From: Lentisphaerae bacterium GWF2_38_69
GTDB taxonomy: Bacteria; Verrucomicrobiota; Lentisphaeria; Victivallales; GWF2-38-69
Assembly: GCA_001803205.1 (NCBI GenBank)
Contig: MHBE01000028.1
Span: forward strand, 24,929 to 88,928
Reading direction: 5' to 3'
DNA length: 64,000 nucleotides
Shown here: positions 4,970 to 45,342 of the stretch, in pieces
Position numbering within the stretch: position 1 is the first letter of the stretch
How the letters are laid out: each line of letters opens with the position of its first letter
Notes under the pieces: model-generated
The model's input: the letters and a program-made list of their open reading frames with translations, nothing else
Told to the model about the DNA's origin: nothing
Databases searched by the model: none
Position numbers and translations under genes: made by a program

Positions 4970-5377
4970 ATGCGCCATAGAAAAAAAACATTTAAAATCG
5001 GAAGAACAGATTCCCATAGGAAATCTCTTCTTGCTAATCAGGTTTGCTGCCTAATATCCTCAAAAGAAATAACTACAACTTTGGTTAAGGCCAAAGAAAC
5101 AAAGCGAATTGCAGAAAAGATGGTTACTCTTGCTAAGAGTGGTACTCTTCATGACAGACGCCGTGCAATAAGCAAGTTAGGGGACACTCAAGCTGTTAAA
5201 ATACTATTTGAAGAAATAGGTCCAGCATTCAAAGATAGAAATGGAGGCTACAGCAGAATTATCCAACTAGGGCCAAGAATTGGAGATGCCGCGGAAATGT
5301 GTATCCTTCAGTGGGTAAATACAACATCAGGTGAAGCTCCAAATTCTACAAGTAAGGAAAAAGCAGCTGACAAATAA
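4970..5377 (+). CDS. rplQ: 50S ribosomal protein L17
   Basis: 135 aa. MRHRKK..GRTDSHRKSLLANQ, typical L17 N-terminus. Confidence 0.95.
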   Translation: MRHRKKTFKIGRTDSHRKSLLANQVCCLISSKEITTTLVKAKETKRIAEKMVTLAKSGTLHDRRRAISKLGDTQAVKILFEEIGPAFKDRNGGYSRIIQLGPRIGDAAEMCILQWVNTTSGEAPNSTSKEKAADK

Positions 5378-5405
5378 TCGAACTAAGCAAAATATTGTAA
5401 CTTTT

Positions 5406-5441
5406 AAGGGCAGTCTTCAAAGCTGCCCTTTTTTCTTTTTT
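5406..5441 (+). terminator. rho-independent terminator of the alpha operon
   Basis: AAGGGCAG (5406-5413) pairs with CTGCCCTT (5423-5430), followed by TTTTCTTTTTT. Confidence 0.7.
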
Positions 5442-5500
5442 GCTAGTGTAAATATATAACATAACAACTACAATCTAAAATTGCAGGGAGTTATGATGCT

Positions 5501-6307
5501 ATGCGTAATTACGACAATTGTTTAAATAATTTTCTAAATGATTTGAAAGATGAAAAGCGTCTTTCCGCCGAAGAAACTACACGACTGATCCTCATTTATC
5601 AAAAGACAAACGATAAAAAAATTCTTGATGAAATAATTATCGGAAACATATGGTTTATTATTTCAAGAGCAAAGAGATACACGAATAGGTATTTGTCTGC
5701 TTCGGATTTTATTTATTCCGGTATTCTTGGAATGATTAGAGCAGCTAAAAAATTTGACCCGTCAAGGAAAATTAAATTTATTACATATGCCTGTTACTGG
5801 ATAGAAATGTATATGAGAAGAGAAGTTATATTTAATTCTTCAATTGTCAAAATGACGCCCAGAATGTGGGGGATGGCTTCAGCATTGGCAAAAATGAAAG
5901 ATTCTGGCGCTACAGAAGAAGAGATAATTAAAAAACTTAAAATTGGGAGGAATACATTTAAAAAATTACGAAGGCATCATAATGATATAAGTTTAAATTC
6001 ATTTCTTACCAATGATCCCGATGCTGACGAACTTGAGAAGATGATTCTTGTTAATTACCAGACACCTGCTCAAATATGTGAAGAAAGCGATGAATCATCT
6101 TATATGATTTTACTACTTAATAAATTAAAAAGAAGAGAGAGGGAAGTAATTGAGCGTAAATTTGGACTAAGAGACATTGATAAAGAAAACACTATGGCAA
6201 TTAGTAGGAAAGAAGAAATTTCTGCTGAAAGGGTGAGACAGATACTTAAAAACGGCTTAAAAAAACTAAGAAAATCTTTTCCAGCCAGAGAATCGTACTT
6301 TAAATGA
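5501..6307 (+). CDS. sigma-70 family RNA polymerase sigma factor (non-primary, group-3-like)
   Basis: 268 aa. Region 2 FIYSGILGMIRAAKKFDPSRKIKFITYACYWIEMYMRREV; region 4 HTH ISRKEEISAERVRQILKNGLKKLR. No region 1.1 or long non-conserved region. Confidence 0.8.
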   Translation: MRNYDNCLNNFLNDLKDEKRLSAEETTRLILIYQKTNDKKILDEIIIGNIWFIISRAKRYTNRYLSASDFIYSGILGMIRAAKKFDPSRKIKFITYACYWIEMYMRREVIFNSSIVKMTPRMWGMASALAKMKDSGATEEEIIKKLKIGRNTFKKLRRHHNDISLNSFLTNDPDADELEKMILVNYQTPAQICEESDESSYMILLLNKLKRREREVIERKFGLRDIDKENTMAISRKEEISAERVRQILKNGLKKLRKSFPARESYFK

Positions 6308-6890
6308 ATTTTATCGAAATGTCATAAATTTCTTGAGGCGATGTAACTACAAATGCGTTTATTCCCAGATTTTTGGCTGATTCCACATTAATTTTGCTGT
6401 CATCAAAGAAGAATATATTTTCAGGAACAGTATTTAATTCTTTGATTACATATTTAAATATTTCAGGGAATGGTTTCATAAGTCCAATTTCATAAGAAAA
6501 AAACAATCTATCAAAAATTTTAAACAAATCATATTTTTGTCTGAGAAAATCAATATGAATTTCATTAGTATTGGAAAGGACTGACAGATTATAATATTTC
6601 TTTAATTTAGAAAAAAGTTCCACAAAATTAGGTTTAGGCGGGCCAGTAATAGAACAGAAGTTTTTTTTAATTTCTTCTGGGGAAAGAGATACATTGAATT
6701 CTTTAATTAGTTCATCAGCAAATTCGTCAAATGAAATTTTACCTGTCTCAAAATTTCTAGTAGAATCGGAAGTGATCCAAAGTTTCTGAAGTTCTTCTAT
6801 TGTGAATTCTTTCTGAAGCATTTTTGCAGCATAAAATTCCCAGTATAACTCAATAATGACTCCGCCCATATCTGTAACTAAATGTTTCAT
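6300..6890 (-). CDS. HAD-superfamily hydrolase (phosphatase-like, subfamily IA)
   Basis: 196 aa. Motif I variant VTDMGGVI; motif IV FFFDDSKINVESAKNLGI. 3' end overlaps the convergent sigma gene by 8 nt. Confidence 0.78.
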   Translation of the reverse strand: MKHLVTDMGGVIIELYWEFYAAKMLQKEFTIEELQKLWITSDSTRNFETGKISFDEFADELIKEFNVSLSPEEIKKNFCSITGPPKPNFVELFSKLKKYYNLSVLSNTNEIHIDFLRQKYDLFKIFDRLFFSYEIGLMKPFPEIFKYVIKELNTVPENIFFFDDSKINVESAKNLGINAFVVTSPQEIYDISIKFI

Positions 6891-34619: not shown

Positions 34620-35180
34620 ATGCCTCCTGGATATGATCCATGGCAGAATGCCAAGACAAAAAACGGCTTCAATGCAGATGAAGTTATTTCAGGAATACAA
34701 AAAAGTATACGCAGAAGTGAAGTTGAAGATGCTATTACATTTGCATGGGAAATGTACATTACTTCCGAAGAACTGGAAAATTATATGTGGAAGCGTCTTA
34801 TGGTAATTAGCGTTGAAGATATAGGATTCGGTGAACTAAGAGCTCCTATCCTGATAAAAACTCTGAACGATATAAGAAAAGAATTTGCGTATAATGCTCC
34901 AGATAGGCCATTATTTTTCGTTCACGCTATCAGATATCTGTGTTCTCTCGAAAAAGATCGTTCTACAGATATGCTTCGCAATATTGTTGAAAAAGAATTT
35001 GAAAAGGGAAAACGGCCTTACATAAAAGATTATGTCCTTGATATGCACACAAAAAAAGGACAGGAGATGGGGCGGGATGTTAATTATTTTCTCGATGAAG
35101 CAAGTAAAGTTATTCCTTTAAAAAAAGGAGCACATGACGAATATCTTCCACGACTTAAAAAGCTTTTAAATGACAAATAA
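34620..35180 (+). CDS. stand-alone MgsA/RarA C-terminal-domain-like protein
   Basis: 186 aa. ISGIQKSIRRSEVEDAITFAWEMY and MVISVEDIGFGE resemble the MgsA_C helical domain (HKSIRGSD..ALYW, ..SEDIG.AD). No AAA+ ATPase module. Confidence 0.55.
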   Translation: MPPGYDPWQNAKTKNGFNADEVISGIQKSIRRSEVEDAITFAWEMYITSEELENYMWKRLMVISVEDIGFGELRAPILIKTLNDIRKEFAYNAPDRPLFFVHAIRYLCSLEKDRSTDMLRNIVEKEFEKGKRPYIKDYVLDMHTKKGQEMGRDVNYFLDEASKVIPLKKGAHDEYLPRLKKLLNDK

Positions 35181-35209: not shown

Positions 35210-36868
35210 TTACAAGTCAGCCATAATTGATTTGTAGTTCATTTGGTCTTCGTACATTTTCTTGAAGACCCCATACTTAGCAATATGATAGGAAGCAGTA
35301 AGTCCTTTTGCTGGCTCAATAATCTTTTCAGCCTTGCACATCTTTGACATACCATCCTGGACAGTTAAAGCCCCTCCCGAAGCCGCCATGCCGAGAATCG
35401 CCGAACCAAGCAGAACAGCTTCCGGTTCTTTTGAAAGAACAAGCGTGCACTGAGTGATATCAGCATGTTCTCTGATAAAAACGGGATTTTTTGTTCCTCC
35501 GCCACATATGAAAATTGTATCTATTTTATAACCATTGTTATTCATTTCTTCAATTATATGCTTAGTGCCATATGCGATGGCCTGAATTGTTGCCAGATAA
35601 AGCAGAACGAGTTCTTCAATGGAATCGGAGAGTTTCAATCCGCTAATCATTCCCCTGAGTAGCGGATTAGCTCTTGGAGACCTGTTGCCGTGGAAATAGG
35701 GTAGTATATGGAGGCCTCTGGTAAGTTCTGCAGGAAATCTAACTTTTGATGACATTTCATCAAGTTTGGCATTAAGAAGTTCATAAACTGTTTTATTAGC
35801 TTTTTCGGCTTCACTTATGAGCTCAGCAGCTTTTGTGTGAGAGAAAATTATATGGTCAACAAGTGCACCTGTTGCTGACTGTCCGCCTTCAGATAGCCAC
35901 ATACCGGGCAACATAGCAGAAAAATAAGGCCCCCAGACTCCTGGAACATAACTCGGATTCGGTGAGACTGCCATATGACAGCTTGAGGTTCCTCCAATAA
36001 GGGCAAGTCGCCTTGAAAAATCAATTCTATTCTCATCTTTCAGAATTGCACCTAACATGCCTATTCCTCCTGCGTGGGCATCGATGATTGAAACTCCCAG
36101 AGCTGTTCCTTCCTTTAAACCGAGTTCTAAAGATGATTTTTTACTGAGACCTCCAGGAACACTTTCAGCTATTGGTCGTACTCTTGTGCCAATGCGTTGA
36201 TATCCTTCAGCAGAAAGGTCTTCTAGTCCGATGGCTTTAAAATATGAATCATCCCATGATCCAACGCTTTCAGAATTTATCCTTTTGACATGTCCCATAT
36301 ATGTCCATTTACACACCGTAGAGCAAAGAGATCTTACATCCTGTCCAGTTGCTTTGTAAACTAGAAAATCCGGCAGATCAAAGAATTTAGCTGTTTTCTG
36401 CCAGCATTCCGGATGGTGTTTTTTTAACCAAAGGAGTTTAGGTGTTTCCATTTCAGGAGAGATTTTCCCTCCGACATATTTAAGGACTTCATGTTTTGTG
36501 GAATTGATAAAATTAGTTTCTGCTATTGCCCTATGATCCATCCAGACAATTACATTGCGTTCGTTTTCATTGGATTTGCTTACAGAGACCGGCTTGTCTT
36601 GAGAATCTATCGCGACTAGAGAACATGTGGCGTCAAAACCAATACCCGTGATGTCATCTTTTTGAATTTTGGCTTTTTTTATGGATTCCCTGACGCAATG
36701 GCATACTGATTCCCAAATATCATTTGAAGATTGTTCAACGAAATCCTGATCATACTTCCATATCTTGATTGGATTGCTAGCCGAAGATAGCATAACACCT
36801 TCTGATGTGAAAATTCCTGCCCTGGCGCTGCCGGTTCCTACATCAATCCCAATATAACAATTATCCAT
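35210..36868 (-). CDS. FGGY-family carbohydrate (pentulose/ribulokinase-like) kinase
   Basis: 552 aa. N-terminal YIGIDVGTGSARAGIF and C-terminal ICGGGTKNPVF. Confidence 0.88.
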   Translation of the reverse strand: MDNCYIGIDVGTGSARAGIFTSEGVMLSSASNPIKIWKYDQDFVEQSSNDIWESVCHCVRESIKKAKIQKDDITGIGFDATCSLVAIDSQDKPVSVSKSNENERNVIVWMDHRAIAETNFINSTKHEVLKYVGGKISPEMETPKLLWLKKHHPECWQKTAKFFDLPDFLVYKATGQDVRSLCSTVCKWTYMGHVKRINSESVGSWDDSYFKAIGLEDLSAEGYQRIGTRVRPIAESVPGGLSKKSSLELGLKEGTALGVSIIDAHAGGIGMLGAILKDENRIDFSRRLALIGGTSSCHMAVSPNPSYVPGVWGPYFSAMLPGMWLSEGGQSATGALVDHIIFSHTKAAELISEAEKANKTVYELLNAKLDEMSSKVRFPAELTRGLHILPYFHGNRSPRANPLLRGMISGLKLSDSIEELVLLYLATIQAIAYGTKHIIEEMNNNGYKIDTIFICGGGTKNPVFIREHADITQCTLVLSKEPEAVLLGSAILGMAASGGALTVQDGMSKMCKAEKIIEPAKGLTASYHIAKYGVFKKMYEDQMNYKSIMADL

Positions 36869-36898
36869 AATTAATAATTTCCTGTTAAAAATTGTTAA

Positions 36899-38461
36899 TT
36901 ATTTATTGGTTCTGCCTAATATAAATTCATGTAAGCAGTCCACAACTTCATCTTTTTTACATGGAAGAAAAGTTATAGATCCTGCGTTTTTATGTCCGCC
37001 GCCTTCAATAAAGGCATTGGGGACTTTCTGGTAAATATATTTCTTCAGTTCATGTAGGGAAAAATTGGCTTCATTTGTAGCTCTTAAAGTAATTGCAGTA
37101 TTCATGATTCCAGCAGTGATGAGAGCTTTTGTTCCTGTTTCCTGCAGGTAATTTTCGTGAATCAGACTGACAGCTCTTCCCGGTTTTGGAAAGAACCCAA
37201 ATCCCGGAAAAGATTTTTCAATTTCAATAGTTTGAAGAGTCACACTCCCTAGTTTCTCCTGGATGGCTCCAGCTTTACCAATAGCAAGCCCTTTTTTGTC
37301 CAGTTCTTTAATGTATGGAGCAAGAAGACTGACAAGTTCCTTCTGTTTATTTCTTGGCTGTCCAAAAACTACTTCCACATATTCTCTGACTTCCATGAAC
37401 CTTACTTTTGATGAAACGAATTCTATTACAAGTCCGATATCAGAGAGGAGCTCTTTTGAGTAACCTTCAGCGATGGCAAGAGCAAGATATTTCTCCATAG
37501 TTTCTTTGTTTGCAATATCAATTCTGTCGGAATACCCGCTCATAGCAGCTATCTGGAGAATATTTTCAACATTCTCGTTAATAAATCTGGCAAGTTCAAC
37601 GCAAAGCATTCCGGCAGAAATCAGGGAACCGCTTTCTCCGACGAGAAACGGGTTGATATGCGCAAGAACCTGTTCGGAAATGACATCCTGATCAAAACCA
37701 TGATGATCTACCACGATGAAGTCAGAGCCATGAATCCTGCCCTGTTTGATTGCCATTAAATCTTCTTCACATGAACCGTTGTCACAGATAATAATAAGAG
37801 GCATTTTGTTTGAAAATTTTGCGACATTTCTAAGTGAGTTTGCAGTATCTCTTATAGAGTCTTCAAGTTCATAAAATGGCGCCTGACAGGGAGCTCTCTG
37901 GAAGAATTCCCATGGAGCTTTTTCAGAATTATGCTGTTTAATAATGAGCGGTACAATGGCTCTTTCCAGGGCAAATCCAGAAGAATAACCGTCACAGTCA
38001 TTGTGATGTCTTATGATGATTGGTCTGTTCTGTATTATCGCCAATCTTATTTCTTCGGCGGCCTTAATAATCCTTGGTTTGAGTTTATCAAGGATTTCAT
38101 TTTTTACGAGGAATTCAATGTCCTTGACTTTTGCTCTTTTTATCTCGATTTCTCTCATTGAAGCGCGCAATTCATCAACCTCTCTTTCATTGAGTTCCTT
38201 TATTGATTTAATTTCGCCTTCAAGTTCACCTTTGAATTCTCCTATCTCAATTGAGGCTTGCACGCTCATCCCTTCAAGTATTTCAGGGAAGGCTCTTTCG
38301 CCTGGTTTGATGAACCCTTTAAGTGCAAGATTCCCTGTACCGTCAGAAAGAAAGAAAATTGTCGGCCCGCCAGTCTGGACAACACGATCAATTCGTCCCT
38401 TTAGTAAAACCCGCCTGCTTGAGGCGGATATGTCACTGATAAATAATCTGCGATTTTCCAT
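36899..38461 (-). CDS. OB-fold/DHH/DHHA1 phosphoesterase (archaeal-RecJ-like architecture)
   Basis: 520 aa. N-terminal OB-like segment, charged coiled-coil, DHH motifs HHNDCDGYSSG, IIICDNGS, FIVVDHHG; DHHA1 motif IEGGGHKNAGS. Confidence 0.78.
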   Translation of the reverse strand: MENRRLFISDISASSRRVLLKGRIDRVVQTGGPTIFFLSDGTGNLALKGFIKPGERAFPEILEGMSVQASIEIGEFKGELEGEIKSIKELNEREVDELRASMREIEIKRAKVKDIEFLVKNEILDKLKPRIIKAAEEIRLAIIQNRPIIIRHHNDCDGYSSGFALERAIVPLIIKQHNSEKAPWEFFQRAPCQAPFYELEDSIRDTANSLRNVAKFSNKMPLIIICDNGSCEEDLMAIKQGRIHGSDFIVVDHHGFDQDVISEQVLAHINPFLVGESGSLISAGMLCVELARFINENVENILQIAAMSGYSDRIDIANKETMEKYLALAIAEGYSKELLSDIGLVIEFVSSKVRFMEVREYVEVVFGQPRNKQKELVSLLAPYIKELDKKGLAIGKAGAIQEKLGSVTLQTIEIEKSFPGFGFFPKPGRAVSLIHENYLQETGTKALITAGIMNTAITLRATNEANFSLHELKKYIYQKVPNAFIEGGGHKNAGSITFLPCKKDEVVDCLHEFILGRTNK

Positions 38462-38468
38462 TGTATAA

Positions 38469-39989
38469 TTATCTTTTTCCTCCGAAGACTCTGACTTTGA
38501 ATCCTAGTTTATGTGAAAGAGCAATCATTTCTTCCATGATATCACCATAAGCTATTGCAATATGGTTACTCATGTAGTGAGCCATCAGTGTATCTCTGGA
38601 GATTCCAAGGTCTGCAGCCATAAAAGGCCACTGTCTTGTTATTGATGTCCAGAGTTCCTCTTTTTTCTTCTCTTCAAGTTTGGGAACTTCACCTTTGCCA
38701 ATGTCCATATAAAGTTCATCATTCATAACGAAAGCTCTGGCCCAGGTAATTTTTCCGGGGAGGCTTTCACCTGTGAATGTGCCTCCTGGAATCGGAAAAT
38801 AACCAGCTGGCTGTCTGTAGGAGTGGACACCTTCAAGGGAGTCAGGTTTATGATTGAAAGAATATGCTCCGGCCGAGCCTGAATTATTCAAGAGCCAGAT
38901 AAATCTTCCATCGTGTTCAACTCCCCACCTTACATCGTGGAAGAATGTAGCCTGATGAAGTTTTTTCTTCTTGAGAATCCTTTTCATTAATTCCATCGGG
39001 ATGAGGTTTCCCTGATCGCCTTCTGTTGAATCTACGATAGTGTCGCCGTTTGATTCTGGTCTGCAAGCTGAATTCAGAAGGCCTTCAGCAAAATCTGAAG
39101 GCGGGCGTAGACCTATTAATCCAAGCTGGTACTGCCAGCCCACGCAATCAGCTTTGAATTCATTCACGATATCCAGGACTGCAAGATAATCGCGAAGTTG
39201 TTCTTTTGTCGCCTTTTCATCAAAGTCTTCAGCTTCTTTTTCTCCGTAATGGAATGTAATCCCTTTGCTTTTGACAAATTTATAAGCTTCATCAATTCTC
39301 TTCTGGCTGATTTTTGTTCCTCTCTCAATAATCCATGCCTGGTCAACCTTGTGCTCTGTAAAACCTATTTTGGTAAGAAATTTTGAACCAAAATAACCAT
39401 TAATCATACCCATTGAAGTATCACCGAGCATCAGAGCCAGAATTCTTCTTTGGGATATTTCATCAGCTATCTGTTGGGCTATTTTAGAACCTTTTTCGGA
39501 GACTTTTACAGGTTTTTTAACCTCTGTTGCAGAGTATTTTATAGTTCCATTCTTGCACCATTCTTCAAGTCTTGACATAAAGGCTGAATCATCAGTCCAG
39601 TTTTCCGCATCAGTCCAGACTCTGCTGGCCTTTCTTCCTACAAATTCAAGGCAGGCGGCAGTGTTAAGAAGACCTACAAGGCCGGGCCATTTGCCTGAAA
39701 AATTGCTTGCGAGCAGAAATGGAGTATCTTTGCCCACCACACCGTCAGTTGTATGTGGGCCATAGACCCAGTGAGTATACAATCCAATCAGAGGATCATT
39801 GATGGGGCTGATTTTTTCAATTGCTTCGTGCGGTTTAGTGATGAAACCTTCAACTTTATAAGGGATATATCCAAGCTTTTTAATAGCTTTTTCCATTTGT
39901 TCGGTAGCTTGGATAACTCCGGGGAGGGCAAGTTCATTTGGCTTAGCTCTATAATCACCAGGCCAGAATATTGCGATTTTTTTCTTCAT
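38469..39989 (-). CDS. L-fucose/L-arabinose isomerase family protein (putative sugar isomerase)
   Basis: 506 aa. Overall resemblance to FucI-like proteins (KIAIFWPGD.., TEGDQGNLIPMELM, HYMSNHIAIAYGD). Weaker, pattern-level call. Confidence 0.58.
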   Translation of the reverse strand: MKKKIAIFWPGDYRAKPNELALPGVIQATEQMEKAIKKLGYIPYKVEGFITKPHEAIEKISPINDPLIGLYTHWVYGPHTTDGVVGKDTPFLLASNFSGKWPGLVGLLNTAACLEFVGRKASRVWTDAENWTDDSAFMSRLEEWCKNGTIKYSATEVKKPVKVSEKGSKIAQQIADEISQRRILALMLGDTSMGMINGYFGSKFLTKIGFTEHKVDQAWIIERGTKISQKRIDEAYKFVKSKGITFHYGEKEAEDFDEKATKEQLRDYLAVLDIVNEFKADCVGWQYQLGLIGLRPPSDFAEGLLNSACRPESNGDTIVDSTEGDQGNLIPMELMKRILKKKKLHQATFFHDVRWGVEHDGRFIWLLNNSGSAGAYSFNHKPDSLEGVHSYRQPAGYFPIPGGTFTGESLPGKITWARAFVMNDELYMDIGKGEVPKLEEKKKEELWTSITRQWPFMAADLGISRDTLMAHYMSNHIAIAYGDIMEEMIALSHKLGFKVRVFGGKR

Positions 39990-40002
39990 ATGATTCCTTT
40001 TA

Positions 40003-40902
40003 TTAGAGTAGGCCTAATTGCTTTAGGCGAATTTTGATTTTTTCTCTTTCAGGGTTTTTGAAAGAATGGAAAGGTTCTGCGAGAGTGTCGCTGCATATAC
40101 CAAGAAGAGATAGCGCGCATTTAACCCCTTTCAAATAGCTGGAACCATGTTTCCCCACAGTATAAATGGCACTGCTGATATCAAGGATTTTATTTTGGAG
40201 TTCTTTGGCAAGTTCCCATTTTCCTGTCTGGGCGGCATTAAATAAATTTACATATACCTCAGGGCAGAAGTTTGCTCCGCCGTTTACTCCTCCGTCAGCT
40301 CCTATGAACAGAGATTCAGCCAGGATTTCTTCAGGGCCTACATAAAAAGCAAAGTCATTATTATTTTTTAATTTATGCTTGAGCATGTGAAAATAAGTCA
40401 TATTGCCCGAACTATCCTTAATACCTTTTACACCTTTAATTTCTGAAGCAAATTTTACTGTTTCAGGATCAAGCATGGTCTTTGTCATGCTGGGCATATT
40501 GTACAAATAAAGAGGGACACTTATTTCTTTCATTAAATCTGAAATATATTCCCTTAATTCATCTGGCCCTGCAGTAAAATAATAAGGAGGAGCAAGGACG
40601 ACAGCATCAGCTCCGTTTTCTTTTGCAAAATTGGCTAACTTAATTGATTCAACAAAAGCAGTGTCAGTAATTCCGACCATAACAGGGAGTCTGCCTGCTA
40701 TCTGTTTACAGGCTCTCTCTACCAGCTCGTACCTCAGTCTATAACTCAAACTAGGCGCTTCGCCTGTAGTTCCTAGAATGAAGATTGCGTGTACACCGCC
40801 CTTGATGACATGTTCTATAAGTTTATCCAGACCCTTTGTATCCAGCTTGTCCGAAGAAAGAAGAGGAGTTATCAAGGGTGGGATAATACCTTTAATTTTC
40901 AT
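40003..40902 (-). CDS. DapA/NanA-family class I pyruvate lyase (dihydrodipicolinate synthase / N-acetylneuraminate lyase family)
   Basis: 299 aa. GTTGEAPSLS, YNMPS, Schiff-base lysine context GIKDSSGN. Confidence 0.85.
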   Translation of the reverse strand: MKIKGIIPPLITPLLSSDKLDTKGLDKLIEHVIKGGVHAIFILGTTGEAPSLSYRLRYELVERACKQIAGRLPVMVGITDTAFVESIKLANFAKENGADAVVLAPPYYFTAGPDELREYISDLMKEISVPLYLYNMPSMTKTMLDPETVKFASEIKGVKGIKDSSGNMTYFHMLKHKLKNNNDFAFYVGPEEILAESLFIGADGGVNGGANFCPEVYVNLFNAAQTGKWELAKELQNKILDISSAIYTVGKHGSSYLKGVKCALSLLGICSDTLAEPFHSFKNPEREKIKIRLKQLGLL

Positions 40903-40945
40903 TTAATTTAGCCTCAGTGTTTAATTAAGTTTTTTATACCAAGTG

Positions 40946-41719
40946 CTATCTATACGGTTGCCATTCAGGTTCATTTTGGAAAATCCATCTGTAATAAGCT
41001 TTTTCTTTAAGGTCAGAAGCGGCTTCCTCGTCACAGATTACAGTGCATGAAGGATGCAGTTGAAGCGCTGTAGCAGAAATCATTGAAGTAATAGGCCCTT
41101 CTACGGCTTTTGCCAAAATTTCAGCCTTGTCCTTTCCTGTAGCGAGCATTAGTATTTTTTTGGCTTCAAGGATAGTGCCTACTCCCATGGTAAGAGCGCG
41201 CTTAGGCATATCCTGCGGTTTGTCAAAAAGGCCTGAATTCTGGTCTATGGTAGTTTGGGTTAGAGCTTTTTCTCTGGTTCTTGAGAAAAGAGAAGAGAGA
41301 GGTTCATTGAATCCAATATGCCCTGATTTTCCAAGACCCAGAAGCTGAATATCTATTCCTCCATGATCTGAAATCAGTCTTTCATATTTCTCGCACTCTT
41401 CTTTCATATTCTTAGCCATACCGTTAGGAAGGTAAGTGTTATAGAGTTTGATATTAATTTTTTTGAATAGGTTCTCATTCATGTAATATCTGTAGGAATT
41501 CTTGTTAGTCCCTTCTAGTCCTATGTATTCGTCGAGATTAAATGTCGTGACGCTTGAGAAGTCCAGGTTCATAGCAACAATCATATCATAAACTTCTTCC
41601 ATAGTTCTTCCTGTTGCCATTCCAAGGACGCAAGAAGGTTTTGATTTAACTTTGGCAGCGATAAGCTTTGCTGTTAGAGTAGTTGCAGCTTCCCTGTTTT
41701 TCATGATGATGACTTCCAT
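40946..41719 (-). CDS. nagB: glucosamine-6-phosphate deaminase
   Basis: 257 aa. VLGMATGRT, TFNLDEY, LGLGKSGHIGFNEP. Confidence 0.92.
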   Translation of the reverse strand: MEVIIMKNREAATTLTAKLIAAKVKSKPSCVLGMATGRTMEEVYDMIVAMNLDFSSVTTFNLDEYIGLEGTNKNSYRYYMNENLFKKINIKLYNTYLPNGMAKNMKEECEKYERLISDHGGIDIQLLGLGKSGHIGFNEPLSSLFSRTREKALTQTTIDQNSGLFDKPQDMPKRALTMGVGTILEAKKILMLATGKDKAEILAKAVEGPITSMISATALQLHPSCTVICDEEAASDLKEKAYYRWIFQNEPEWQPYR

Positions 41720-41736
41720 AATTTTCTCCTATGTCT

Positions 41737-42645
41737 TTAATTTGTTATTTTATGAAAACTTAAGGATAATTCTTGTTGAATCATATATATAGCTCCGAGC
41801 TCTGCTGTTTTTGAGGCATTAGGAAGAGAAATATAATGTTTTTCATTAACATAAGAGTAGAGCAATCTTCCTAGACCTCCCAAAAGAACGCAATTGATTT
41901 TTTCTGAAGGATGTTGTGATTTTTTATTCAAGGCTTTATATATTAAGCCTATCTCTTCAGCCGCTGCCTGAATAAGGTTTAGAGCATATGAATCTCCTTT
42001 TTGCGCGTAATCAACCACAAGCGGAGCAAGAGTTGCGAATTCTGATGATTTTGCGGAACAAGCCCATGTGCAAAAATCCACAAGGTTGTTATTGAATTTG
42101 GCAAAAACCGCATTTAGCATTTTACTGTTTTCTATAACGCCGTCAGCGGCTTTGAAAGTGAGTTTTGCTGTTTCAAGACCCAGCCAGGCTCCTCCTCCGA
42201 TATCCGCATGAGGAAAACCCCATCCGCCAATTCTATAATATTTACCTTTTTCAACCAAGTATCCAATTACTCCTGTTCCAACGCTTATAATGGCTCCGTC
42301 TTTTCCATCATGAACAGCCAGACAGCCAATATGCGCATCACTTTCAAGAATGAGAGTTTTAAAAGGGTGCGGTGTGGCAAGAAATTCTTCTTTGGCTTTT
42401 ACAATTGTGACTCCTGCCAGCCCCATCCCGGCATGAAAAAGGTACTTTTTGTTGTCCAGAGTTATCTTACTGTCTTTCAAAGCTTCGTTTATAGCGCAGT
42501 AAATTGAGTTCCAAGAATCTTTTACAGAAAGCCTTATATTTGAAGGGCCGCCAAAGCCTGTTCCGATAAGTTTGAAGTTTTCATCTGTGACAATTGCTTT
42601 GGTTTTTGTTCCTCCTCCGTCGATTCCGATATATAAGCTTTTCAT
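41737..42645 (-). CDS. BadF/BadG/BcrA/BcrD-type N-acetylhexosamine (GlcNAc/MurNAc) kinase
   Basis: 302 aa. LYIGIDGGGTKTKAIV and GWGFPHADIGGGAWLG. Confidence 0.8.
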   Translation of the reverse strand: MKSLYIGIDGGGTKTKAIVTDENFKLIGTGFGGPSNIRLSVKDSWNSIYCAINEALKDSKITLDNKKYLFHAGMGLAGVTIVKAKEEFLATPHPFKTLILESDAHIGCLAVHDGKDGAIISVGTGVIGYLVEKGKYYRIGGWGFPHADIGGGAWLGLETAKLTFKAADGVIENSKMLNAVFAKFNNNLVDFCTWACSAKSSEFATLAPLVVDYAQKGDSYALNLIQAAAEEIGLIYKALNKKSQHPSEKINCVLLGGLGRLLYSYVNEKHYISLPNASKTAELGAIYMIQQELSLSFHKITN

Positions 42646-42647
42646 AA

Positions 42648-44216
42648 TTATTTCCTGTTCTGCAATATTACTGCTACGGTTTTATTGACTATTGATTCTC
42701 CCGGCTGAAGAACTTCCAGTTCCTTGAACATCTTGTCGGCAATATCCTCGTATTTCATTTCCATCTTGTGTTTCATTTTAAGAATGAAATCAATATATCT
42801 TATCGCTCTGTCAATAAGCTTGCTGTTGCTTGGATAAAGTGATGTCATGATATTTCCGTCATAAAGGCCAAGCCTTCCCATAACAAGTGTGGAAGATGTA
42901 TTTAAAATCAGTTTCAGAAGAAGCTGTTCGAATATAGGCGAAAGTTTTTTTATGCTGAAAGAAAATCTGATTCTATCAAATTCCAGATTTATGTCATTAT
43001 TTTCATTTCTACTTACTTTAAAAATATGTTTTGTCGGCGCGTACTTTGTTCTGAACAGAGCCAGATTTTTGCTGAAGTCAAAACCCATCAACCGGTTCAA
43101 GTTTGTTTCGTCACTCCAGTCAAGTGTTTTTGGAGCGCGTCCGAGGAGAAGTTTCCACGCTTCCTGGGCTGTTTCAGCTTCCTTGAAGATTATATAACAT
43201 GTTGAAGGTTTTTTATTAGAGTCAATCTGGTTTTCAAAAGGTATCAAGTTGAAAGTGGGTGAGCGTTCAGTTGTATCTGTAAGAGTGGTAATCCCGTAGC
43301 AGGGTTGAGTTTCGTAGAGTATAAATTCTTTGTTTTTATAAGCAGCGCTTTCGGCAATGATAATTTCATCAATCGGATTCATGTCAAAAGACTTAAAGAA
43401 CTCAAGAAAGTCTTCTAATTCATTTCTGATGTTTTTAGATATTAGAGGCATGCCCATTCCGATCATAAGAGCTGTTGTAGCCTGCATTCTTGTGCTTCCA
43501 GAAAGAGCCATTGGGCCGGTATATAATCCAATGTTTTTGATACGGGAGTTAAAAATAGGGTGATCTTTGATCCTGCCTTTTAGAGCGTCATTCGTATTGC
43601 AATGAATAAAGTAGGGCTCCACGCTTGTTTTTGCTGCTTCCTCTGCGGCACCTATGCAGAAAGGAGATTCTCCGCTTGCTGTAGCGCTTAAAAGCAAATC
43701 TCCGTCTTTGAATCCTGCCTGATAGAGTTGTCTGATGCCGAAATCCTTGTGATCTTCGAAACCTTCAAGAGACTTGATCATCGCGCTGTCTCCCCCTGCC
43801 AGAAAACCAATAAGGGAATCTTTTCTATCAAATGGGTTATAGCTTTTCCATAGGTATTCCAGAGCGACAGCAAGTCTTCCACTCGCGCCGCATCCGCAGA
43901 TGTAAATTTTATTTCCTGATTTGAGCGTATTTTCTGCGTCTTTTTGAAGTTTTTCCATTTCAGGAAGATACTCAAGCATTTTGGTAATGGCTTTTATGTC
44001 TATTTTCTGAATGAGTTTTACAGCTTCTTTGACATTGTTAGTTGCCAGTTCAGACATATTATGAGTGTCAGGATTAGGAAGCTCAGTAAGAAGAGGATGA
44101 TTGCGGAATTTGTCCTGTTGTTCCCAGAATATCTTTATTCTGTTTTCAAGGTCTGGGGTTCTCAATTTTGTAAGCTCCTCTATCGATTTAAAGCTAAAGG
44201 ATGAATTTTTTCCCAT
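42648..44216 (-). CDS. MurQ/GCKR-family SIS-domain protein (putative MurNAc-6-phosphate etherase, long form)
   Basis: 522 aa. IYICGCGASGRLA (compare MurQ GAGTSGRLG) and LSGSTRMQATTAL (compare GSTRxKAGTAQK). About 90 aa N-terminal and 150 aa C-terminal extra sequence. Confidence 0.72.
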   Translation of the reverse strand: MGKNSSFSFKSIEELTKLRTPDLENRIKIFWEQQDKFRNHPLLTELPNPDTHNMSELATNNVKEAVKLIQKIDIKAITKMLEYLPEMEKLQKDAENTLKSGNKIYICGCGASGRLAVALEYLWKSYNPFDRKDSLIGFLAGGDSAMIKSLEGFEDHKDFGIRQLYQAGFKDGDLLLSATASGESPFCIGAAEEAAKTSVEPYFIHCNTNDALKGRIKDHPIFNSRIKNIGLYTGPMALSGSTRMQATTALMIGMGMPLISKNIRNELEDFLEFFKSFDMNPIDEIIIAESAAYKNKEFILYETQPCYGITTLTDTTERSPTFNLIPFENQIDSNKKPSTCYIIFKEAETAQEAWKLLLGRAPKTLDWSDETNLNRLMGFDFSKNLALFRTKYAPTKHIFKVSRNENNDINLEFDRIRFSFSIKKLSPIFEQLLLKLILNTSSTLVMGRLGLYDGNIMTSLYPSNSKLIDRAIRYIDFILKMKHKMEMKYEDIADKMFKELEVLQPGESIVNKTVAVILQNRK

Positions 44217-45342
44217 TTACAAATGCTTTTAATGGTTTGAAATTACTGTCTACTATAAGAAGATCTGCTTTGTACCCTTTTTCAATTTTTCCTACATCTT
44301 TGAGTCCAAGTGAAGATGCCTGATTGTAAGAAGTAACTTTTATTATTTCAGATAGAGGAATACCTGTAATATCGTAAACATTCTTAAGGGATTGATAATA
44401 TTTAAGTGTACTGCCTGCAAGTGCGCCTGAAGCTGCTATTCTTGCCGCGCAGTTTTCTACGATTACATCAAGTCCCCCGAGTTTATAGTTGCCGTCTTTC
44501 AGCCAGGATGCTGACATTGAGTCTGTAATTAACATGATGTTATCCGCATGCCTTACTTTAAATGTCAGTTGAATCATATCAGGACAGACATGAATTGTAT
44601 CGCAGATAAGTTCAAGTTTTACATCGTCATCGATGAGGCCAGCTCCTACCAATCCTATTTCCCTGTGATGCAGCGGCGTTATCTGATTACAGTAATGTGT
44701 AATGTTTTTAAGTCCGTATTTTTTTGCTTTTTTAAAGTCTGCATAAATAGCAGAACTATGGGCGCAAGAAGGTACAATTCCCATCTTATTGAGTTCAGCG
44801 ATGAGTTCAGAAGCTCCTTCTACTTCGATTGCAAAAGATACGATTGCAACTTTTGAAACATTATGAAGATCTCTTACGAAATTAATGTCAGGCTTTTTAA
44901 TAAATTTGGGATTTTGCGCTCCTATAGCTTTTTGACTTATAAAAGGACCTTCGAGGTGCATTCCAGCTACTTTCGCAAAAGTCGTGTTTCTTTTATATTC
45001 TTCAACGCTTTCGCAGGCCTTTTTGAGGTCTTCAAAAGGAAGAGTAAGAGTTGTAGGGCAGAAAGTAGTTACGCCTTCTCTGAGCTTGGTTTCTGCAATT
45101 TTCTCAATTGATTCTACTTTGCCGTCAGTTACATCGCATCCCATTGCTCCGTGAGTGTGTATATCAATGAATCCGGGAAAAACAATATTTCGTTGAGCAT
45201 CAATTATTTCAGAACCAGTCGGTATCTCTGTAATGTTATTATGGAAAATATTTTCAATTATATCGTTTTTGATTTCCAAAGATCCATTAGCTATATCCAG
45301 GCCAGCTGAAACGATCCTGCAATTTGTTATAAAAGTGCTCAT
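44194..45342 (-). CDS. nagA: N-acetylglucosamine-6-phosphate deacetylase
   Basis: 382 aa amidohydrolase. FIDIHTHG and HLEGPFIS; GGAGG RBS. Confidence 0.9.
   Translation of the reverse strand: MSTFITNCRIVSAGLDIANGSLEIKNDIIENIFHNNITEIPTGSEIIDAQRNIVFPGFIDIHTHGAMGCDVTDGKVESIEKIAETKLREGVTTFCPTTLTLPFEDLKKACESVEEYKRNTTFAKVAGMHLEGPFISQKAIGAQNPKFIKKPDINFVRDLHNVSKVAIVSFAIEVEGASELIAELNKMGIVPSCAHSSAIYADFKKAKKYGLKNITHYCNQITPLHHREIGLVGAGLIDDDVKLELICDTIHVCPDMIQLTFKVRHADNIMLITDSMSASWLKDGNYKLGGLDVIVENCAARIAASGALAGSTLKYYQSLKNVYDITGIPLSEIIKVTSYNQASSLGLKDVGKIEKGYKADLLIVDSNFKPLKAFVNGKKFIL

Follow-up and report, generated by a model that had tools for sequence, protein, structure and literature searches.

The HAN nucleases have been described as confined to the Euryarchaeota, where they are linked to Hef, a fork-repair protein of archaea, and have been stated to be absent from bacteria and from non-euryarchaeal archaea (PMC6158738); the case presented here aside, the family is archaeal (PMC3307487, PMC6158738). 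The Thermococcales members, including PfuHAN (PF0399) of Pyrococcus furiosus and TkoHAN (TK0155), belong to NCBIfam family NF053577 and to COG1107/arCOG00429, and are proteins of 740 residues in which an N-terminal DnaJ-type zinc finger, an S1-like domain and an OB fold precede the DHH/DHHA1 nuclease domain. Their chemistry is that of a Mn2+-dependent 3'-to-5' exonuclease of single-stranded DNA (ssDNA) and single-stranded RNA (ssRNA) (PMC6158738, PMC5717133), as Feng et al. reported for PfuHAN, which acts on long substrates of both kinds (PMC6158738). In the literature on RecJ, DPANN archaea and horizontal gene transfer, we found no description of HAN-like genes in bacteria. Here we describe such a gene at positions 36899-38461, on the minus strand, of a 64,000-nucleotide stretch of contig MHBE01000028.1 from Lentisphaerae bacterium GWF2_38_69, a stretch that we refer to throughout as the window. 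Its 520-residue product is encoded within a bacterial operon for sugar catabolism, and we think it quite likely that it is a short HAN-type ssDNA/ssRNA exonuclease derived from DPANN archaea, with a housekeeping role in nucleic-acid metabolism, which travels as a passenger in the sugar operon of a single Victivallales lineage.

The earlier note on this DNA, which was made from the sequence alone, had read in this open reading frame (ORF) an OB-like N-terminus, a charged coiled-coil, complete DHH motifs and a DHHA1 GGGH motif, and every string that it quoted is indeed found in the translation: LKGRIDRVVQTGGPTIFFLSDGTGNLALKGF at residues 20-50, HHNDCDGYSSG at 152-162, IIICDNGS at 223-230, FIVVDHHG at 248-255 and GGGH at 487-490. 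The AlphaFold2 model of the protein (pLDDT 84.7, pTM 0.85) has a five-stranded OB fold at residues 17-89, two long helices at 92-143, which account for the coiled-coil, and then the DHH domain (about 146-320) and the DHHA1 domain (about 400-512). Pfam recognises DHH barely above its cut-off (29.1 bits) and the tRNA_anti-codon OB fold barely below it (25.7 bits), and it is the more specialised models that place the protein. The best NCBIfam match, ahead of the rest by 290 bits, is NF053577, HAN_nuclease, at 333.5 bits (E 2e-99) with residues 13-512 aligned to model positions 102-599 of 612, a score below the equivalog cut-off of 840, so that by sequence the protein is to be regarded as a homolog, and not an equivalog, of Thermococcales HAN. 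A sequence search of the PDB gives a single strong match, to the DHH nuclease domain of PfuHAN (5yh1; PfuHAN residues 300-740), at E 1e-73 over residues 98-513, with the next entry at 6e-4. A Foldseek search with the AlphaFold2 model likewise has 5yh1 as its top match (E 4e-34, TMt 0.87, root-mean-square deviation 3.1 Å, 35% identity), with all other structures at 5e-13 or weaker, which puts archaeal RecJ-Cdc45, GAN, RecJ2 and bacterial RecJ some 20 orders of magnitude behind. The linker helices at 92-143 partly align with the N-terminal end of the PfuHAN fragment in the crystal structure, and the OB part finds the OB folds of RPA, Stn1 and ExoVII. By sequence and structure alike, then, the HAN nuclease domain is the closest relative, over RecJ, GAN and Nrn. 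The archaeal RecJ-like layout proposed earlier holds and can be made more precise, because this is a short-form HAN of the COG1107/arCOG00429 branch of the DHH/DHHA1 superfamily, and not a generic RecJ.

How, then, does this protein compare with its better-known relatives? It shares with Thermococcales HAN the nuclease domain and the OB fold ahead of it, but lacks both the zinc finger and the S1-like domain: there is a single OB fold in the AlphaFold2 model, Pfam finds only OB and DHH, and there is no cysteine cluster in residues 1-100. Closest of all outside the bacteria are the short HAN-like proteins of DPANN archaea (Woesearchaeota, Pacearchaeota and Nanoarchaeota), which have the same OB, DHH and DHHA1 arrangement in 510-560 residues and are 65-72% identical to it over their full length. 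GAN/RecJ-Cdc45, Methanocaldococcus jannaschii RecJ2 and bacterial RecJ (COG0608) have in common with it the DHH/DHHA1 core and motifs I-VII, and their fold matches reach a probability of 1.0, but with low TM scores and with sequence scores of 32-43 bits against cut-offs of 360-550 (32.1 bits against 396.9 for bacterial RecJ, TIGR00644; 43.3 against 360 and 38.4 against 550 for the archaeal GAN and RecJ-Cdc45 models, NF053576 and NF040701). In contrast to the GAN/RecJ group the protein has no CMG-interaction domain, and whereas bacterial RecJ carries its OB fold at the C-terminus and degrades 5'-to-3', here the OB fold is N-terminal and the polarity expected by analogy with HAN would be the opposite. 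NrnA, GdpP and DhhP, the nanoRNases and cyclic-di-AMP phosphodiesterases of the DHH/DHHA1 superfamily, share the GGGH motif and are distant fold matches (Foldseek ranks 34-36, E 1e-7 to 1e-6), with no family-level sequence match in Pfam or NCBIfam.

The active site is intact. When 39 family members, PfuHAN among them, are aligned, with residue roles taken from PMC6158738, the Mn2+ ligands of PfuHAN (D366, D436, H462 and D528) correspond to identical residues D157, D227, H253 and D312, and D155, D157, D227, D252-H253-H254, D312 and G487-H490 are invariant throughout. DHH motifs I-IV, which supply the metal ligands, and DHHA1 motif VII (GGGH) are complete, and the remainder of motifs I and III is identical to PfuHAN. 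Three of the four substrate-binding residues are also identical (R507, R676 and H709 of PfuHAN being R292, R460 and H490 here), and the fourth, R587, is replaced by a lysine, K372. By analogy with PfuHAN and TkoHAN, we would accordingly expect a 3'-to-5' exonuclease.

This conservation extends well beyond the catalytic residues. The operon-embedded copies retain 171-175 of the 178 columns that are at least 95% conserved among 120 archaeal-like homologs, columns that the DPANN proteins share, and the only clade-wide differences at these columns are exchanges between phenylalanine and tyrosine. Within the bacterial clade dN/dS (the ratio of nonsynonymous to synonymous substitution rates) is 0.02-0.06, about 0.03, with dS values of 0.76 to more than 2 that are near or beyond saturation, and in the tree discussed below the branches of the bacterial copies are not inflated. 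As judged from these comparisons the gene is under strong purifying selection, and we see no sign that its function has shifted towards a sugar substrate.

The earlier note was silent on the strand, on the bacterial host and on the archaeal origin of the gene, and it is the origin that, to our mind, matters more. The window belongs to a bacterium: tRNA-Thr, tuf, tRNA-Trp, nusG, rpoB, rpoC and fusA lie on it, and RpoB, RpoC, EF-Tu, NusG and EF-G all score well over the curated cut-offs of bacterial equivalog models. The host belongs to the Victivallales (Lentisphaerota), and an identical protein has been deposited, as a hypothetical protein, from a Lentisphaeria metagenome-assembled genome (MAG). 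The homologs of the nuclease fall into three tiers, namely a few from Victivallales at 74-83% identity, hundreds at 65-72% that are labelled Woesearchaeota, Pacearchaeota, Nanoarchaeota or simply ‘archaeon’ and carry the JGI name ‘archaea-specific RecJ-like exonuclease’, and those of Methanosarcinales at 36-39%. In a bootstrapped neighbour-joining tree (513 columns, 39 sequences, rooted on PfuHAN), the bacterial sequences all group together (bootstrap 99) in a single clade of two Victivallales subclades and a tight ‘Vulcanimicrobiota/Synergistia’ group. The sister group of this clade (bootstrap 89) consists of three DPANN sequences that are Woesearchaeota-labelled or unclassified, and the clade is nested inside the Woesearchaeota and Pacearchaeota diversity, with Methanosarcinales and PfuHAN outside. 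The sister contigs can be taken as truly archaeal because the genes for ribosomal protein S6e and aIF2-gamma lie directly beside the nuclease gene. The nesting in DPANN sequences therefore points to transfer from archaea to bacteria.

Several observations on these relatives are worth recording in their own right. In the closest DPANN relatives (our loci L013, L014, L018, L021, L024 and L030), the HAN-like gene is divergently oriented next to the S6e and aIF2-gamma genes, with a PD-(D/E)XK (PDDEXK_1) nuclease gene near by, so that the DPANN neighbourhood is a conserved mix of translation and nuclease genes. The Vulcanimicrobiota- and Synergistia-labelled MAGs (L011, L012, L025 and L039) carry almost identical HAN-like proteins and share neighbours encoding ankyrin, 1112-residue HEAT-repeat and radical-SAM proteins, and at least one of their taxonomic labels or bins is probably wrong; TetR and PDDEXK_2 proteins are also encoded around the gene in this group. 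The contig of a ‘Parcubacteria’-labelled homolog (P0014, 72% identity) is uninformative, its neighbouring proteins having no Pfam match. An FKBP gene stands beside the nuclease gene in L002 and in some Pacearchaeota, and its co-transfer was considered and rejected, as the FKBP proteins are only about 40% identical and the orientation differs.

The second part of the argument concerns where the gene sits. Its immediate surroundings are as follows.

35210-36868, minus strand: FGGY-family pentulose kinase, the downstream neighbour (TIGR01315, 667 bits, cut-off 408.7)
36869-36898, minus strand: A+T-rich spacer of 30 nt separating the stop codon of the nuclease gene from the start codon of the FGGY kinase gene, read from the sequence
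36899-38461, minus strand: HAN-type DHH/DHHA1 nuclease gene, short form (520 residues, ATG start)
38462-38468, minus strand: spacer of 7 nt between the stop codon of the FucI-like gene and the nuclease start codon, read from the sequence
38469-39989, minus strand: FucI-like sugar isomerase, the upstream neighbour (Pfam Fucose_iso_C, E 3.5e-13)
40003-45342, minus strand: upstream part of the operon, with nagA, a SIS/MurQ-like gene, a NagK-like kinase gene, nagB and a DHDPS-family lyase gene (Pfam and NCBIfam)

The sequence confirms the two same-strand gaps that had been reported, and the 30-nt spacer holds AGGAAA 11 nt ahead of the ATG of the FGGY kinase gene. The nuclease gene lies on the same strand as the sugar genes on both sides, a consensus scan found no minus-strand terminator-like site at either of its junctions and no hairpin in the 30-nt spacer, and promoter-like matches in such a scan were at chance level (35, against a shuffled expectation of 28.6 +/- 6.3). 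The gene sits in the operon, and its junctions leave no room for a terminator; co-transcription with the sugar genes would be expected. The suggestion that a nuclease gene had been captured in a metabolic operon is thus upheld. Compositional evidence of foreign DNA was also sought and proved uninformative, as the G+C content of the gene (0.399), that of its third codon positions (0.342) and its codon-usage distance (0.127) are all inside the range of its neighbours. A role in a defence system was dropped after the PADLOC models of anti-phage defence gave no match for the nuclease at E <= 0.01.

The same arrangement recurs, although not widely. Six assemblies have the operon with the nuclease gene, namely the window, a 3.08-Mb Victivallales chromosome (L001/L007), L004, L005, L006 and L052, and the upstream set of nagA, SIS/MurQ-like, NagK-like, nagB and DHDPS genes is present in all of them. 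Misassembly or a chimera is ruled out because the operon with the gene recurs in these five further, independent assemblies, the chromosome among them. The gene order is the same in the chromosome, L005, L006 and L052; L004 departs from it, the nuclease gene there having nagB on one side and the DHDPS gene on the other, and its operon has gained an MFS transporter and a BNR glycosidase. Residence in the operon is limited to a narrow group of Victivallales whose proteins are 79-83% identical to the query. Recurrent flanking by FucI-like and FGGY genes, which had been proposed as a check, is not seen beyond this clade: in about 40 further ortholog loci, neither gene lies near the ortholog. In other Victivallales the ortholog lies beside T2SS and YggS genes (L003/L008) or between genes for a methyltransferase and a PHP-family phosphoesterase (L009 and L010); on the unlabelled contig L002, the protein of which clusters with those of L009/L010, it follows the FKBP gene. 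The DPANN orthologs adjoin translation genes (S6e and aIF2-gamma), the PD-(D/E)XK nuclease gene or an ABC transporter, in archaeal contexts with no sugar genes. Of the two observations that the earlier note held would count against its reading, orthologs away from sugar genes and a promoter or terminator separating the gene from its neighbours, the former is thus largely what we see and the latter was not found.

Viewed from the side of the sugar genes, the picture is similar. The FucI-like protein has homologs of about 70% identity across many bacterial phyla, and in 83 FucI-like loci outside the clade of the window there is no nuclease gene within 8 kb of the FucI-like gene, while an FGGY kinase gene is directly adjacent to it (within 200 nt) in 38 of the 83. 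We conclude that the FucI-like and FGGY genes ancestrally adjoined each other and that the nuclease gene was inserted at their junction in one lineage. In another lineage an unrelated 127-residue PDDEXK_3 gene lies at the same junction (L048, 9626-10009), a site that, it seems, can accommodate foreign genes time and again. Together, the genes for the FucI-like isomerase and the FGGY pentulose kinase make up a module of two that is conserved in many bacterial phyla (L048, L049, L050 and L054-L131). In Victivallales the DHDPS-family lyase joins it (35210-36868 and 38469-40902 in the window), and L004 and L048 additionally have a transporter and a BNR glycosidase of the sialidase/Kdo-hydrolase-like type. 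We infer that such a module would fit a route from a ketodeoxy-sugar acid to pyruvate and an aldopentose, and on to a pentulose and pentulose-5-phosphate, for example from Kdo to D-arabinose and D-ribulose.

Further features of these loci deserve a brief mention. The 522-residue SIS protein of the operon (42648-44216, minus strand) has an N-terminal half like MurQ etherase or GKRP, followed by a long C-terminal extension that matches no family, and is kept in all the operons of the clade. A 186-residue ORF (34620-35180, plus strand), convergent with the operon end, encodes only the C-terminal domain of MgsA/RarA-type AAA+ proteins (Pfam MgsA_C, 26.7 bits, slightly below the cut-off); a tie to the nuclease is unlikely because the ORF adjoins the operon in no related locus. 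An antisense ORF of 151 residues (38013-38468, plus strand) lies entirely within the nuclease gene and is most likely spurious. In L009 and L010, the PHP gene (5033-5938 and 5893-6801, respectively) follows the HAN-like gene after 163 and 19 nt, its product is weakly like RNase RNM and 3',5'-bisphosphate nucleotidase (pAp phosphatase), and the two genes may form a nucleic-acid-turnover pair.

We envisage the following history. A bacterial ancestor would have taken up a HAN-type gene from a DPANN archaeon resembling the Woesearchaeota or Pacearchaeota; later, in one Victivallales lineage, the gene would have lodged between the previously contiguous FucI-like and FGGY pentulose kinase genes, within the sugar operon that runs from nagA to the kinase gene, where read-through from the promoter of the operon most probably accounts for its transcription. 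What the enzyme does has most likely not changed: it would be a Mn2+-dependent 3'-to-5' exonuclease of single-stranded DNA or RNA that serves housekeeping repair or turnover of nucleic acids, and it would travel with the sugar pathway as a passenger without contributing a step to it.

There are of course other ways to read this locus. The enzyme could be kept in the operon for the sake of the pathway, whether for cleavage of a nucleotide sugar or phospho-glycan or for turnover of a second messenger or nanoRNA coupled to cell-wall-sugar catabolism, and, taken together, we consider such explanations improbable. Under the former, which the earlier note had also proposed and for which we see little likelihood, a DHH enzyme has been recruited to hydrolyse a sugar phosphate or nucleotide sugar at a phosphoester or phosphodiester bond, with CMP-Kdo, CMP-sialic acid or a phosphorylated glycan fragment as candidates that would feed the route through the DHDPS-family lyase, the FucI-like isomerase and the FGGY kinase. 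The DHH superfamily does include non-nuclease phosphoesterases (PMC6158738), and two further points favour this reading, the tight embedding with gaps of 7 and 30 nt and no terminator, and the fact that six diverged genomes have all kept the gene in the operon, L004 despite its internal rearrangement. Against a new substrate stand conserved positions that show no clade-specific substitutions beyond the phenylalanine/tyrosine swaps, a retained nucleic-acid-type OB fold and ssDNA-binding residues, and 65-72% identity to DPANN orthologs encoded beside ribosomal and translation genes. In addition, the same sugar module works without the nuclease gene in all 83 other loci, and other Victivallales hold the gene away from sugar genes. 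Regulatory coupling, to which we give an equally small chance, would have the enzyme degrade nanoRNA, pAp, pApA or cyclic di-AMP while co-expressed with the catabolism of amino sugars and cell-wall sugars, much as its relatives NrnA, GdpP and DhhP act on such substrates. The PHP-family phosphoesterase gene that follows the ortholog in L009/L010 and a cdaA/ybbR pair just upstream of the operon in L004 would suit such a role, but the fold matches to NrnA, GdpP and DhhP are far weaker than that to HAN, the cdaA neighbourhood occurs in that one locus and not in the window, and the known substrates of PfuHAN are long ssDNA and ssRNA (PMC6158738). Both explanations come down to the persistent residence in the operon, the L004 rearrangement included; were either true, it would be a non-repair role that is unreported for the OB, DHH and DHHA1 architecture of HAN.

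Very improbable, in our view, is that the gene moved in the reverse direction, from bacteria to DPANN archaea, or that its bacterial occurrences are DPANN sequence brought in by binning or assembly. It is generally known that DPANN genomes hold many bacterial genes, and doubtful labels do occur, as with the near-identical proteins of the ‘Synergistia’ and ‘Vulcanimicrobiota’ MAGs and the Parcubacteria-labelled homolog on its uninformative contig. Against this, the window and the 3.08-Mb chromosome flank the gene, on one contig, with bacterial operon genes, about 10 kb from tuf and rpoBC, its composition and codon usage match those of its neighbours, and for the Victivallales long-read assemblies refute contamination, while the bacterial clade is nested in far more diverse archaeal sequences with euryarchaeal outgroups and belongs to a family that is otherwise archaeal (PMC3307487, PMC6158738).

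Our preferred explanation, that of a DPANN-derived nuclease carried as a passenger, is also open to several objections. Hef is an archaeal protein and is not expected in bacteria, and because bacteria lack it, a role that depends on this archaeal partner cannot apply to the bacterial enzyme. The gene has stayed inside the operon in all six members of the clade although their synonymous sites are near saturation or past it, and in L004 it occupies a different slot yet is still within the operon; such persistent residence could reflect selection for co-expression. The activity predicted for the short-form, DPANN and bacterial members alike is carried over from assays of Thermococcales HAN. The residues that form the salt bridges of the PfuHAN trimer (E390, R449 and E598) are not conserved, being K181, Q240 and Y383 here, and because of this the quaternary structure, and possibly the handling of substrate, may differ from those of PfuHAN. 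Finally, the phylogenetic support is a distance tree of 39 sequences, and the bacterial identity of the ‘Vulcanimicrobiota/Synergistia’ contigs depends on MAG labels and weak markers.

This is, then, a known nuclease family in a new host domain and in a shorter architecture, and no new mechanism is involved. The compact form, OB fold plus nuclease, occurs widely among DPANN archaea, in which it is highly conserved, and appears to have crossed into bacteria at least once, firmly in the Victivallales and possibly in other phyla. Its long retention under purifying selection in bacteria that lack Hef therefore argues for a function that is independent of that partner. The locus offers a clean example of the transfer of an information-processing enzyme from archaea to bacteria, and of how a foreign gene may gain expression by settling within a catabolic operon of its host. 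In addition, the bacterial proteins that are now labelled ‘hypothetical’ could be named, by analogy with their characterised relatives, as HAN-like ssDNA/ssRNA exonucleases of the DHH family.

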